Part shown: positions 9,001-15,000 of the stretch, piece by piece
How positions within the stretch are numbered: the first letter of the stretch is position 1
How the letters are laid out: each line of letters opens with the position of its first letter
Virus record (IMG/VR): IMGVR_UViG_2687453508_000006
Direction: 5' to 3' (one strand)
Length of the DNA: 64,000 nt
Origin: a virus
Taxonomy: Duplodnaviria > Heunggongvirae > Uroviricota > Caudoviricetes
Made by a program: the position numbers

Positions 9001-12000
9001 TGACTTGTCGTGACAGATGCGTGACACGTCGTGACTCATCGTGACAATCAGCATTATGTTTCCGCAGCTTTTCCCGCTCCCGCTGCGCTCTCTTGCGCTC
9101 TGCCGGGGATTTTGCCGTTTGCGAAACGTTACCATTGTCCTCTTTCAGCACCTGACGTTTTTCCCATCCGGAAATAAGGTCACCATCCAGAACCCGCCCC
9201 TGCATTGCATGCAAAATTGAATCAATTACGTCTTCCGTCACATCAAGCGCACTTGCTAAATCTTCCGTCGTGACATCAATGTGACCACGTAGTGACACGC
9301 CGTGACATGTCGTGACATTTCGTGACGCGCTCACCAGAAGATGGATATACACTGCCATCACTGTTGCGATTGGCTGTCCTGATACCCTGGCAATCGTTCG
9401 CCACTTGGGGTCATTTGGCATGTCATGCCACAATCTGAGCCAGGCATTAGCCATACTCACCTCTTCTGATACCGAACTTTACCCTCGAACATCCGGAAGA
9501 AATCCGGCATGAATATTGTTGGTCAATGCACGACAACAGCATTACCAGGCTGACCCCCACTGTTAGTCAGGGTGCCCCAGGCGATCGCCGCTGCGACAAA
9601 ATCATCCACATCTTTCACCAGCCGATCCCTCCGTTCGACGATCTCACGGTAATATTCAGAGCTGTGACTGCGCATACGGGCCACCAGCAGAGGCGGCATT
9701 GCCTTTTCGATCGCCGGTAACAGAGCCTGCATTTTTTCAACTGCATCAGGGGTGTCTTTCTCTATCCAGCGGAAAATTTTCTGGGTATTGCGAGCCAGGG
9801 CTTCCGGATGGCTGTCGTCGTACAGTTCAGGAAACGTCATACCCAACTCAAAATAAGCCTGGGTTATTCCAGCTGCCGGAACTTTTTCGCCATCAGGACG
9901 CGCCCAGGCATTCATCGCCATGCGGATGTGTTCATGCTTGATTTTCATGAATCCCCCCTTGGTTAGAAGGCGGATTATGATCAGAATCGGGAATGACAAC
10001 CGTCGGTATGTGTAACTCATATTTGAGCGCCCCGGCAGTGACTGCCTGAATTAGCAACGCCCATTTCCACGGAACGTCTTCCCCCCACATGCTGACTGTG
10101 GTTTTTGACGTTCCTAGAGCGGCGGCTGTTTTAACAACTCCGCCAAAATAGCCTAATACTTCTGATTTTTTCATGAGTCGCTCCATAAAACTGAACGCCA
10201 AAAGTTTAATAATCAAAACCAAAGAAAGTCAAGAAACAAAACCATCTGTGTTTTAAAATCAAAACATGAACAAGCAAACAATATCTGAACGCATAACCCA
10301 ACGTATGCATGCGCTAAACTTGAAAGGCAAAGACCTTGTCAATGCCACTGGCGCATCAAAAGGCTCCGTAAGTCAATGGATGAACGGTGGAGGAGCGCCG
10401 TCCTCGCGTTACATAAGTTCACTGGCAAAGATATTGAAAGTAAACGAAAATTGGCTTCTTAATGGAGGAGAGTTAAATACAGGTGATTCGCTTGATCTAT
10501 CTTTACCGCCGATAAAAACGGTTCCGCTACTATCACTTCAGCAGGCAGCAAGCTGGAGTGATTATATGAAAAATTCCTCAATAACCTCTTGTGTGCAGCT
10601 TGTCGGAGAAATCCCGGCCAATACCTTTGCTGTTGTTCTAGAGAGTGACAGTATGTCGACATCTGGTGGTGGAGTTTCCATCCCAAATGGTTCAACAGTT
10701 TTTGTTGATCCCGATCGAATCGTACAACCAGGAAATATTGTCCTTGCCTTACCCAAAGGGACCACAACGCCTGTCATTCGCAAACTGGAGATAGAAGGGC
10801 CGGATATTCTTTTAGTCCCCACGAATCCTCGCTACCCTTCAATTATGCTGGATGATCTATCTTGCATATTGGGAGTATGCTTTAAAATTCAACAAGATAT
10901 TTAACCAACCTCATCTATTTGATTAACTGTATGCCATCGTAGTGATGGCGTAACAGCTGCCTGCTTAAAATGTTTTGATAAAAAAACATTGACCTTAAAT
11001 GTTCGTTTTTCTAAACTTCATTCATTCCCTCACCCCGCCCCACAGAATGCAGGGCAATACTTCGAGTTACCAGGCAGTGGTCAGGGGTTAAGTAGCCAGC
11101 CCGAGGCGTAAGAACATGACGGCAGGGTTCAACTTTAATAACTATGCAGCAGGTTTTTGTTCCGCTACCCCGGCGTTAAGGGGAAATGAGGTCAACATGG
11201 ATACGCTCAATCTTGGCAACAACGAATCTCTGGTATGTGGCGTGTTCCCCAACCAGGACGGTACGTTCACCGCGATGACGTATACCAAAAGCAAAACGTT
11301 TAAAACTGAAGCTGGCGCGCGTCGCTGGTTAGCCAGAAACACTGACTGATGAGGTTGACGATGGAATTTAAAGATTTACCTCCTTCAATCCAGGAGATTG
11401 CAGCACACACACTTCGTCATCGTCTGAACGAACTTGAATTGGAATCGGTAACGAAAAAAGACACTGATAATATGGCTCGTAATGTGCGCGATGCGTTTAC
11501 CGGATTGTATTTCTGTGCGTCTATAAATAAACACGACTCAGAGAGTGTGGCAAATAAAATTGCAGAAACGACAGCGCAAAACATCAATACGAAACCAACG
11601 GAAGAAGAAATTGATCAGTTTGCTCATGATGCTGGTTTAAAAAACAAGAAAGAAAAATCGCCATATGCGGGGAACATGTTTGTTTATGACAATCTCATCA
11701 GAATTCGTGGCGAAATTCCGGCGGAATACCTGGCAAGAGTCCATCAGGCATTGCTTAAAAATTTGGAAACAGAATTATTTGATGGCAACACTAACGGTTT
11801 CTTCATGGTATCAGGCCTTGAGAAAGACTGGGATGCAGAAAAACGCTGGAATGTTGCTACATGGTTATTCAGTAACAGAGCCGCTGCACTGGAAGCTTCG
11901 GCATGTATTTGCGGCCTGTTCTTAACAGACCACAAATATAATCTGGATGTGTACAGTTATATTTACGCTGAACACGGTCCACTCTGGATTGACTGGTAAT

Positions 12001-15000
12001 TATAAGGAAACACCAGCAGGGCCGCGGCGACCAACAGAACGATTAAAATCAATAATGCCATTATAAAGGACATTATTTAATTTATCGTCGAATGCTGATT
12101 CTGTGAGCCTCAACTCTGAATGAGTTTTTAATAACCCTGATTGCCTGAGTTGATTTACCAGGCATTCAATCTGTTTTTCAATAAGCGGATTTCTTTTTTT
12201 GTTTGGCATTTTATCCTCCATTGAGGTTCTGGGTTAAAAATGGAGACCAACACGCTGTCACGTGTGGTCGTGCGCCGGACACGGATAAGAATCCGGTACT
12301 GACAGTTTACTGAAAGGATATTTCCCTGAAAAGTCAGTGCATAACGCGAAAGCGTACGGCGAAGCTCTTTCCCTTAGAAGGCTTGTCGTTAGATTTCTTC
12401 GAACGTGCGCTTCCGGTTGTGGCACTCCGCGAAATGGCGCGGCGGTAAGTATGGCGGGGTTATTCCTTCCCCATTGAGGACACCGGGTTGTCAGGTTGAC
12501 CATACGCTTAAGTGACAACCCCGCTGCAACGCCCTCTGTTATCAATTTTCTGGTGACGTTTGGCGGTATCAGTTTTACTCCGTGGCTGCTCTGCCGCCCT
12601 TTTTAAAGTGAATTTTGTGATGCGGTGAATGCGGCTAAGCGCACGCGGAACAGTTAAAACCAAAAACAGTGTTATGGGTGGATTCTCTGTATCCGGCGTT
12701 AATTGTTAACTGGTTAACGTCACCTGGAGGCACCAGGCACTGCATCACAAAATTCATTGTTGAGGACGCGATAATGGAAACGTTATTACCAAACGTTAAT
12801 ACGTCTGAAGGTTGTTTTGATATTGGTGTTCTGCTCAGTAACCGGGAGTTTACTGAAGATGCCATTAACATGAGGAAATATGAGCCTTATCTGCTCAATG
12901 ATAATTCCATACTTTCCCGAATTGCTCTTCTTGAACTTGGTATTTTCGGAGAACGTCAATGACTTCAGCATTTGCACTGATGATGACGGTTTTTCTTATA
13001 ACGGGTGAATCACAGAATGTGATTACCGGAATTTATGCCAGTAAAGAATCCTGCCTCCAGGCAAGAGACGAGCAAAAAATTTCTGGTGAATGCCTCCCGG
13101 TAAAAAAAGTATCGCTGTACCTGAATAACGAAACACCGGCTGGATAACCCTCCAGCCATATTAACACCATACCAACGGATTAAAAATGCCAGCAATGGCA
13201 GGGATTTGTTCACCCTTAAATCTGTAATGAGGTTTATCAATGAGCACTGATAAAGAAGAATTTGCGCTATATTGCGAAGCAAAAAATGACAAAGTCAGAA
13301 AACGTCTGGGAATTAAAGGTGGTTTTTACTGGACTACAGCAAAAAAATTATCTGTTGCCATCTCCCGCTGCATTACCGCAATGGATGACAACGATTATGA
13401 TGAAGACGACTTTAAAAAACCCGTTCGCGTCCATTTACCCGTTGTGAATGACCTTCCACCTGAAGGCGTGTTTGATACCGAATTCTGCAACCGATACGAA
13501 AAAGGCGGGGAAGATGGCATTACAATGGTATTTATCGCGCCCTCTCCCTCCGTGCAGGAGAAACCAGCCAGTACTGACAATACCAACGTCAACGGCGAAG
13601 ACATGACGGAGATTGAGGAGAATATGCTCCTGCCGGTTTCTGGTCAGGAGCTGCCCATTCGCTGGCTTGCGCAACACGGCAGCGAAAAACCAGTAACGCA
13701 CGTTGCACGGGAAGAACTTCAGGCATTACATATAGCACGGGCGGAAGAACTGCCGGCTGTTACTGCCTTGGCCATTTCTCACAAAACAAAGCTGCTCGAC
13801 CCGCTGGAGATTCGCGACCTTCACAAACTGGTACGCGACACTGACAAAGTTTTCCCTAATCCCGGTAATTCAGACCTGGGACTGATAACTGCTTTTTTCG
13901 AGGCATACCTGGACGCTGACTACACTGATCGGGGTCTGCTGACAAAAGAGTGGATGAAAGGAAATCGTGTTTCGCGTATCACCCGTACGGCTTCCGGTGC
14001 AAATGCCGGTGGCGGGAACAAAACCGATCGCAATCCGAATTTAGTACACACCTTCGATACGCTGGATGTGGAGATTGCAGCAGCCACACTTCCGATGGAT
14101 TTTAATATTTATGAAATTCCGGGCAGCGTTTATCGTCGCGCAAAAGAAATCGTCCTGAAAAGAGAAAGTCCGTTCAAAGAATGGTCCGCAGCACTTCGCG
14201 CAACCCCGGGTATTCTGGACTATTCCCGCGCCGCTATTTTTGCACTTATCCGGAGCGCTCACCCTGAGTTTTATCACTACCCGGGACGCCTTCAGGGGTA
14301 TATCAACGCCTACTTAACGGAGACTGATCACGAGAACCCCAGCAAGGAAACTCTCACTGCTGCACGACATACACCGGAAAAAGATATCCTGGAAGAAGTT
14401 AACCGCGAACTGTCTGCTAAGCAGGAAACAGAAGAAGAAAATGATGAAGAAAAACCGCAACCATCTTGCGCAATGGCAGAATGATAATCAGAAGAAATCT
14501 GGCAAAAGACCGTTTTACAGTACCAAAAACACAGGCGGGAACCAATCGTGTGATTCACCTTATTAAGCCCGCAATCGACGCTCTCCGGAGTCAGATGGCA
14601 CTAACGAGACTGAGCAAAGAGCATATCATCGATGTTCACCTCAGAGAATTCGGCAGAACAGAGAAACAAAAATGTACCTTTGTTTTTCAACCTGAAGTGT
14701 CAGCGAAAGTAAAAAATTATGGCGACCATTTTACCGTTGACTCAATAAGGCAGATGTGGGACGCAGCGGTAAAGCGTGCCGGAATCCGCCATCGCAAATC
14801 GTATCAGTCGAGACACACTTATGCCTGCTGGTCGTTAACAGCAGGAGCTAACCCGGCATTCATTGCAAACCAGATGGGCCATGCAGATGCGCAAATGGTG
14901 TTTCAGGTGTACGGGAAATGGATGTCAGAAAATAATAATGCGCAGGTAACGCTGTTAAATACACAGTTAAGCGAGTTTGCCCCAACCATGCCCCATAACG

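Follow-up and report, generated by a model that had tools for sequence, protein, structure and literature searches.

Which genes occupy the place of ydfB and ydfC in prophages that otherwise carry the dicB operon of the K-12 prophage Qin, and do they belong together? We addressed this question for IMG/VR virus record IMGVR_UViG_2687453508_000006 (Caudoviricetes), of which a stretch of 64,000 nucleotides, referred to here as the window, was analysed. The region concerned is a lambdoid, Qin/Rac-like prophage that matches prophage Sp11 of E. coli O157:H7 Sakai. Positions 11100–12620 (1521 bases) match many E. coli genomes (O157:H7, O121 and related ones) at 100% identity, and in Sakai this segment forms the early-left end of Sp11, which is a defective prophage (truncated recE and int). 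Between a ydfA homologue and the small RNA (sRNA) DicF lie two convergent genes, gene A on the forward strand and gene B on the reverse strand, which an earlier note, made from the sequence alone, had described as an unrecognised pair inserted into the ydfA-dicF-dicB operon. We find that A and B make up a conserved accessory cassette of two genes in lambdoid (Qin/Rac-like) prophages. Judging from comparisons between loci, the C-terminal domain of A and gene B form one two-gene module. The features of the pair are as follows (ORF, open reading frame; dN/dS, ratio of non-synonymous to synonymous substitution rates; AF2, AlphaFold2).

11361–11999, forward strand: gene A, 212-aa ORF (ORF list; RefSeq)
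11361–11525, forward strand: N-terminal domain of A (N-domain), aa 1–55, two helices, MEFKDLPxSIQEIAA...NVRDAFTGLY (PHROG, alignment)
11652–11996, forward strand: C-terminal domain of A (C-domain), aa ~98–212 (AF2 model, dN/dS, stands alone beside B in the Salmonella island L009)
12000–12209, reverse strand: gene B, 69-aa ORF (ORF list; RefSeq)
12194–12200, reverse strand: A7 homopolymer in codons 4–6 of B; A6 alleles cut B to 17 aa (allele comparison)

Gene A corresponds to ECs2211 (ECs_2211) of Sakai (WP_000394548.1, phrog_2151) and gene B to ECs2212 (ECs_2212; WP_001133037.1, phrog_4274). Both are named hypothetical in RefSeq. The ATG at 11361, chosen by RefSeq and coinciding with the start of the PHROG profile, gives A a length of 212 aa, and the first ATG, at 11349, gives 216 aa and overlaps the ydfA stop (TGATG). 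B starts 5 nt after a GGAGG ribosome-binding site (RBS) at 12219–12215; an in-frame ATG further upstream would make a protein of 73 aa. The stop codons of the two genes stand back to back (TAATTA, 11997–12002), and no terminator was found between them. In these respects the earlier note had read the locus correctly, giving 216 aa for A, 69 aa for B, abutting stops and a GGAGG site.

To assess coding capacity, dN/dS was calculated for the window against the diverged E. coli copies L004 and L007 and the Salmonella copy L009. The ratio was 0.15–0.22 in the frame of the C-terminal half of A, and 0.15–0.25 in the frame of B at dS 0.34–0.62. Four of the five other frames gave ratios of ~0.7–2.5, and the codon-matched antisense frame gave 0.33–0.44, a lower value that is as expected. 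Because low ratios are confined to the annotated frames and this matched antisense frame, A and B are real genes under purifying selection and not chance ORFs; for the reverse ORF B in particular, a chance origin is ruled out.

Neither gene belongs to a described family, and no biochemical function could be assigned to either. A matches phrog_2151 over its full length (1.9e-147, residues 5–216 of the 216-aa form) and B matches phrog_4274 likewise (1.4e-51), both families being annotated as of unknown function. Among 5.8 billion proteins, homologues of A form 153 clusters and those of B 36, all from Escherichia or Salmonella and named 'hypothetical' or 'Ybl81'. Searches of Pfam (E ≤ 0.1) and NCBIfam returned no match for A or B, including the SieB profile and toxin and antitoxin families, and sequence searches of the PDB, run with single sequences and with a profile of the C-domain, had no match better than E 0.28. 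The claim that neither protein has a recognisable family therefore holds for Pfam, NCBIfam, PADLOC and the PDB. A deep sequence search with a C-domain profile added nothing beyond the known relatives; neither B nor the C-domain was found in species-representative genomes. Deposited phage genomes contained only the N-domain of A, with gene B and complete gene A not found. A literature search found no mention of Ybl81, ECs2211, ECs2212 or the protein accessions.

The N-domain of A is common to many short phage proteins with unrelated C-termini, including the forward genes of other cassettes described below, and also turns up in exo-xis-region proteins of Stx2a phages (PA2 gp25 is one). Four other PHROG families match A over the N-terminus only. 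A full HMMER pass over 1.84 billion representatives gave 35 matches in all, most of them to the N-domain only (23 of the 35 representative matches to A cover just aa 1 to ~60). A linker of low model confidence joins this domain to the C-domain, which is predicted to fold as a strand-strand-helix-strand-strand-helix-strand sandwich (predicted local distance difference test, pLDDT, ~80 over aa 110–190) and contains an invariant FDGxxNGxF motif. Its distant relatives are P0175 and P0179 only, at 28–36% identity and with an N-terminus different from that of A; phrog_2151 also matches them (1.3e-9 and 1.5e-8, respectively). In P0175 an XRE-type helix-turn-helix (HTH) is inserted and fused to the C-domain (Pfam 8.1e-6). 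The earlier note had proposed fold searches on AlphaFold models of both proteins. For A (mean pLDDT 67, C-domain usable), Foldseek against BFVD and the PDB yielded no usable match, with none below E 1e-3 and template modelling (TM) scores < 0.5; resemblances to the Prp protease and the SUI1 fold were too weak to use.

Gene B has an AF2 model of low confidence (pLDDT 60), too poor for searching by fold, with two predicted helices (8–24 and 42–58). Conservation in the protein centres on a motif, SGLLK, and on the tail RRGPAGVxL at the C-terminus. The idea that B is a ribbon-helix-helix protein, which came from reading the sequence, was dropped as no profile or model backs it. Among 67 fetched loci, the homopolymer in codons 4–6 is A7 in 57 and A6 in 10. 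The A6 allele occurs in four complete genomes (O26 RM8426; O145:H28 RM12581 and RM13514; O145 RM12275-C1), and could be a lineage-specific inactivation, slippage or a sequencing error.

The association of the C-domain with B carries the case for a module. In the Salmonella island L009 (GCA_012280615.1, 200–4700), where an integrase and Ash-family genes are present and the dicB operon is absent, a stand-alone C-domain ORF (79% identity) is convergent with a B homologue (77%), and their stops abut. P0179 and P0175 are encoded immediately behind cox, in prophages whose immunity region is P2-like (L012 and L013), and after each comes a B homologue (52% and 44–46% identity) in convergent orientation, with a 3' overlap of 53 and 11 nt, respectively. 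These two homologues match phrog_4274 (1.5e-20 and 5.4e-9) and keep the SGLLK motif and the RRGPAGVxL tail. The left flank thus differs in L009, L012 and L013, where there is no N-domain, and the pairing is kept. In IMG/VR, 80 loci encode the C-domain, of which 78 could be judged; B is convergent in 74 of the 78, with stops touching in 71. Among 5426 complete E. coli genomes, 596 hold each gene (coverage ≥ 80%) and 588 hold the whole 1.5-kb stretch. The convergent orientation, with the 3' ends of A and B meeting, was the same in all relatives examined. That partner, orientation and 3' contact are retained down to ~30–50% identity, in mobile elements of three kinds, is more than local linkage by itself would readily account for.

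Two further observations concern these loci. Two slot cassettes stand in tandem in L009, first the C-domain ORF and B, then a 119-aa N-domain protein and the 64-aa MSEQELK ORF; three copies of the C4 antisense RNA and two of isrK are also present. In a sub-lineage of gene A ending in ...WIDWFKG (L213, 2207–3652; L223, 2501–3934), B is deleted to its first codons and a larger reverse gene, different from B, follows.

Upstream of B, three reverse-strand hairpins are kept in 12 of 12 leader variants (minimum free energy, MFE, folds and RNAalifold). Together with a predicted promoter they are located as follows.

12332–12304, reverse strand: predicted B promoter, −35 TTTTCA (12332–12327), 17-nt spacer, −10 TAAACT (12309–12304) (8/12 match)
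12296–12275, reverse strand: hairpin HP1, CCGGA...UCCGG (MFE folds, RNAalifold pair table)
12267–12247, reverse strand: hairpin HP2, stem sequence varying by lineage with pairing kept
12245–12216, reverse strand: hairpin HP3, CUCCAU...AUGGAG, its 3' arm overlapping the B Shine-Dalgarno GGAGG

The HP1 stem includes U.G and G.U pairs, which can form on the reverse strand only, since the forward strand would give C.A and A.C mismatches. The sole variant of HP3, U-A to U.G, is likewise tolerated only on the reverse strand. The stems of HP2 are CCACACG/CGUGUUGG, CCCAAC/GUUGGG, UCCCGA/UCGGGA and GCCACA/UGUGGU. Some copies have CTGTCA as the HP2 loop, and others have its reverse complement, TGACAG, on an unchanged stem (window compared with L003/L004), so that a palindromic hairpin has apparently been flipped between copies. 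The −10 element of the predicted promoter lies 7 nt before HP1, and in six otherwise unrelated upstream contexts a −10-like hexamer (TATAAC, TATAGG, GATAAT, TAAAAT, CAGCAT or TAACAT) stands 6–7 nt before HP1. We infer a B promoter with a transcript that would start at HP1. Another promoter-like site on the reverse strand (12237–12208) was rejected as the driver of B, as it overlaps the gene's own start codon, and HP1 was rejected as a terminator, there being no U-tract after it.

On the same side of the pair, the ~270-nt 'DicF leader' (12268–12540) is kept in Cox-type prophages that have no DicF (L012, 4863–5300; L013/L015, 5103–5480), and in L015 a C4 antisense RNA (RF01695, 74 bits) lies downstream of it. 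From its distribution, this leader looks like a modular structured RNA reused with different sRNAs.

How this place varies between prophages was surveyed by an exact-match scan. A 15-nt RBS pattern proved too generic (120 loci) and the hits were filtered by the adjacent HP1 motif. The survey returned at least seven types of reverse ORF behind one conserved upstream sequence.

Reverse gene B, 69 aa: forward partner A (N-domain plus C-domain)
Reverse gene MSEQELK..., 64 aa: forward N-domain protein ending ...NEYERRKKMLSD
Reverse Zn-ribbon protein (MPTKLCPACN...), 61/80 aa: forward N-domain protein, 186 aa when full-length
Reverse gene MHSKS..., 100 aa: forward N-domain protein, 105–126 aa
Reverse GhoS-like protein (PF11080, borderline), 94 aa: no forward partner, directly after ydfA
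Reverse gene MINEEQ..., 75 aa: no N-domain forward gene
Reverse second Zn-ribbon protein, 63 aa: no N-domain forward gene

In the four types with an N-domain forward gene, each reverse type has its own C-terminal variant of the forward gene, in every locus. The 3' ends abut or overlap by 0–77 nt in the A/B, MSEQELK, full-length Zn-ribbon and MHSKS types; the degenerate 61-aa form of the Zn-ribbon type has a gap of 186 nt. The limits of the variable block are the 5' end of the forward gene on its left and, on its right, the leader with the first codons of the reverse gene. A/B is best described as an allele of a cassette slot that lies between ydfA and the DicF leader and is bounded by recombination. 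The comparison of gene content across prophages, which the earlier note had put forward as a check, therefore bears out the idea of a variable cargo slot and adds to it that the forward C-terminal variant matches the reverse type. As to the claim of an insertion into the operon, the position stands; the wording does not, and is better replaced by that of an allele of the slot. Some prophages (L008, L222) carry a ydfB and/or ydfC-like gene besides the A/B pair.

The 94-aa allele resembles GhoS, a type V antitoxin (PF11080), at a borderline level (E 2.8e-4, 21.2 bits against a cut-off of 21), and this shows that the slot can carry cargo related to toxin–antitoxin (TA) systems. On slot alleles other than A/B, PADLOC gave only weak, chance-level matches. 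The family phrog_8894 includes two of the slot alleles (L052/L072, 94 aa; L075/L127, 100–101 aa).

The genes that flank the slot are those of the Qin dicB operon, with YdfA, DicF, DicB and YdfD/DUF1482 all identified where they had been claimed.

10266–10904, forward strand: cI/LexA-like repressor ORF (Pfam scan)
10989–11017, forward strand: putative dicBp-like early-left promoter, TTGACC-17-TAAACT (consensus scan, 9/12)
11197–11349, forward strand: ydfA homologue (DUF1391), left slot boundary (Pfam PF07151, 1.2e-29; RefSeq coding sequence)
12548–12599, forward strand: DicF sRNA (Rfam RF00039, 75 bits)
12774–12962, forward strand: dicB (Pfam, 6.4e-37)
12959–13147, forward strand: ydfD (DUF1482) (Pfam)
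13240–14484, forward strand: truncated recE (ORF list, profile scans, RefSeq)

The predicted promoter is placed as is dicBp of K-12 Qin, downstream of the repressor gene, and ydfA, gene A, DicF and dicB would all be transcribed from it. The repressor ORF encodes 212 aa with a weak N-terminal HTH (HTH_3, 21.5 bits, just below the cut-off) and a Peptidase_S24 domain; the RefSeq repressor in TR01 and in Sakai (ECs_2209) is the last 112 aa only, and its start may be mis-annotated. Between DicF and the start of dicB there is a sub-threshold Rfam match to the whole STnc100 model (12597–12806, forward strand; 34.7 bits, the gathering score being 47; E 7e-5).

Comparison with known systems places the pair more precisely. 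In an alignment with K-12 Qin, homology stops at the ydfA stop (~11345) and restarts at ~12268, the start of the long DicF leader. The gap holds ydfB and ydfC in K-12, which are like A and B in their place between ydfA and the DicF leader and in being small uncharacterised proteins transcribed from dicBp. However, A and B show no similarity to K-12 YdfB (42 aa) or YdfC (72 aa), either in the DNA alignment or by BLASTP (E > 3, 8-sequence database); moreover, ydfB and ydfC both read forward, and a reverse ORF is absent from K-12. As had been claimed, the position of ydfB/ydfC is taken by another pair; the two sets of genes are unrelated, and the possibility that A/B is ydfB/ydfC in disguise was rejected.

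A parallel in layout is found in the Rac prophage of K-12, where the order is racR, ydaG, ydaF (DUF1391), sieB (on the opposite strand, with a 4-nt 3' overlap with ydaF), the sRNA kilS and kilR. Like B, Rac sieB lies opposite the early-left operon in the same position and orientation, after a DUF1391 gene and before an sRNA and an FtsZ inhibitor; B is on the reverse strand between the DUF1391 gene and DicF/DicB, and would likewise be expressed in the lysogen. The P22 system, located in this same part of the genome, links exclusion by SieB to an escape product, Esc, and to sas, an antisense RNA (PMC12197685). The combination of an exclusion gene expressed by the prophage, an escape product and antisense control resembles what may hold for A/B. 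SieB is a membrane protein of ~160–190 aa, whereas B has 69 aa, and Esc is an internal translation product of sieB, whereas A, the putative partner, is a separate convergent gene. No hydrophobic stretch was seen in B (by reading the sequence by eye, without a transmembrane predictor), neither A nor B matches the SieB Pfam profile, and what precedes sieB in Rac bears no relation to the B leader.

Type II TA systems and polymorphic toxin–immunity cassettes share with A/B a two-gene unit, cognate variants, a larger protein in which a variable C-terminal region follows a conserved N-terminal one, and a location in mobile elements; in P0175, moreover, an HTH is fused to the putative partner-binding domain. 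In contrast to type II TA genes, which are co-directional in one autoregulated operon, A and B are convergent with separate predicted promoters. They match no TA family in Pfam, NCBIfam or PADLOC, and A survives without B in one lineage. The GhoS-like allele of the reverse position differs from B, which has no similarity to GhoS, in having no forward N-domain partner. By sequence, then, A/B is not a member of YdfB/YdfC, SieB, a TA family or a PADLOC system. What distinguishes it among prophage accessory and exclusion cassettes is the conserved convergent architecture together with the shared structured leader.

Our preferred reading, which is tentative and to which we assign a probability of about 0.35, is that B is a factor expressed in the lysogen and A its cognate partner expressed on induction, with an exclusion/escape or a toxin/antidote logic. 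Here we infer the timing of expression of A and B, their binding to each other and their activity. In the lysogen, B would be transcribed from a weak sigma-70 promoter of its own, through a structured leader of ~88 nt that is common to many alternative cargo genes. It would work there by itself, perhaps excluding incoming phages or aborting their growth, or else modifying the host in some other way. A would belong to the repressor-controlled early-left operon, with its C-domain as the cognate partner of B. Processing of a polycistronic dicBp transcript that runs through ydfABC yields DicF in K-12 (10.1101/2023.04.14.536235; PMC5069750), so that the early transcript here must cross gene A and the antisense strand of B. 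Because the 3' ends abut with no terminator between them, strong dicBp-like transcription upon derepression would run head-on across B and may turn it off by collision and antisense pairing. The same early transcript would supply A, which would bind and neutralise the B protein already made and so allow the lytic programme of the prophage to escape. This proposed logic would be that of SieB/Esc/sas in P22. The fusion of an HTH to the C-domain in P0175 looks like an architecture typical of a neutraliser or regulator rather than an effector. Whether the reading extends to other cassettes is more doubtful. We think it unlikely that they constitute an undescribed class of convergent switches with exclusion/escape or toxin/antidote action in Qin/Rac-like prophages; that such a class would be characterised by a forward gene with shared N-domain and variable C-domain, a cognate reverse gene, a conserved antisense promoter and a three-hairpin leader is a speculative proposal. 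It seems improbable, too, that head-on transcription would serve as a lysogeny-to-lysis toggle that also gates DicF/DicB expression.

Several observations weigh against the preferred reading, and some of them fit rival explanations. The predicted promoter of B is weak (8/12, under the cut-off of the scan). K-12 Qin (L002, ~4080–4170), where there is no reverse ORF, also has the promoter-like element together with HP1 and HP2, and an antisense transcript may be the primary function of the locus, with the ORFs as passengers. The reverse-strand promoter and leader transcript would then oppose the dicBp transcript and keep DicF/DicB low in the lysogen; the reverse ORFs, including B, would be morons on this antisense transcript, and A and B would have no relationship at the protein level. 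The strand-specific wobble pairs of HP1, the sharing of the leader by many unrelated ORFs and the missing terminator between the convergent genes agree with such control as well. It leaves unexplained, however, why the C-domain and B remain convergent neighbours at 28–52% identity in different flanks and why the C-domain stands alone with B in Salmonella, and both proteins are under purifying selection. We therefore judge this explanation unlikely, while antisense control could coexist with the preferred model. The roles of the two proteins might also be reversed, A being an early-lytic host-takeover or growth-inhibiting protein like DicB/Kil and B a constitutive lysogen antidote that would shield the lysogen from leaky early-left expression, the leak being damped further by convergent transcription. 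Opposed, separate promoters of this kind recall convergent restriction-modification gene pairs. The pairing and the cognate cassettes fit reversed roles equally well, the modelled small two-helix body of B with its conserved C-terminal tail would suit a binding antidote, and the neighbouring dicF and dicB are toxic when expressed (PMC5069750). Against this, A persists without B in the ...WIDWFKG lineage, which argues against a strict toxin and obligate antidote with A as the toxin, and A6 frameshift alleles of B stand beside intact A. The HTH fusion in P0175 is on the A side, an antitoxin-like architecture, and the C-domain has no enzyme-like motif or fold match. A reversal of roles is in our view improbable. 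The same lineage also counts against the preferred reading, as A has some value there, or at least no cost, without B.

Linkage of the forward and reverse genes within E. coli could, moreover, be a consequence of breakpoints in conserved flanks. Taken to its end, this explanation treats A and B as two unrelated accessory genes moved as a block by phage mosaicism, each with a minor or lost function. Both ends of the block do lie in sequence common to all cassettes, Sp11 is a defective prophage, and neither gene was found in any deposited phage genome; but the pairing survives where the left flank differs (L009, L012 and L013), both genes are under purifying selection and most loci are intact. 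Coincidental linkage is thus quite unlikely. It is very unlikely that A and/or B inhibit an immune system of the host or of a competitor during induction. The early-operon location among small uncharacterised proteins and a polymorphism typical of arms-race loci would agree with such an anti-defence role, but B faces against the early operon, which makes an early lytic product of it improbable, and there is no similarity to a known anti-defence protein or fold and nothing specific in favour. The remaining points against a lysogen-expressed B with A as its partner are that PADLOC-DB 2.0 (E ≤ 1) has no match for A or B and that the structure models of both, that of B being of low confidence, yield no functional clue. 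For the toxin, immunity, exclusion or anti-defence function suggested in the earlier note, no identifying evidence was found, PADLOC, Pfam, the PDB and three fold searches all being negative. Separately from these considerations, the element in K-12 Qin may give rise to an unannotated antisense RNA that runs into ydfC and opposes dicBp transcription; a literature search for an antisense transcription start site at ydfC found no report.

The pair is carried by about 1 in 9 complete E. coli genomes (596 of 5426), some of which hold several copies. All 25 of the best-matching genomes listed are O157, O121 or strains of the CDC/USDA outbreak collection, and others among the matches listed include O26, O103, O111 and O145. 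A/B is common in genomes of Shiga toxin-producing E. coli, inside an operon that makes the cell-division regulators DicF and DicB. These two affect the physiology of enterohaemorrhagic E. coli, and the natural signals that induce dicBF are poorly understood. Should A/B prove to be mosaic cargo only, the loci would still be useful in mapping a recombination hot spot whose boundaries are defined. If an exclusion/escape or toxin/antidote switch is correct, it would represent a new family of prophage-encoded phage resistance or addiction in outbreak lineages, and the conserved antisense promoter and leader, present also in K-12 Qin, would constitute an unrecognised layer of control over dicBF expression.

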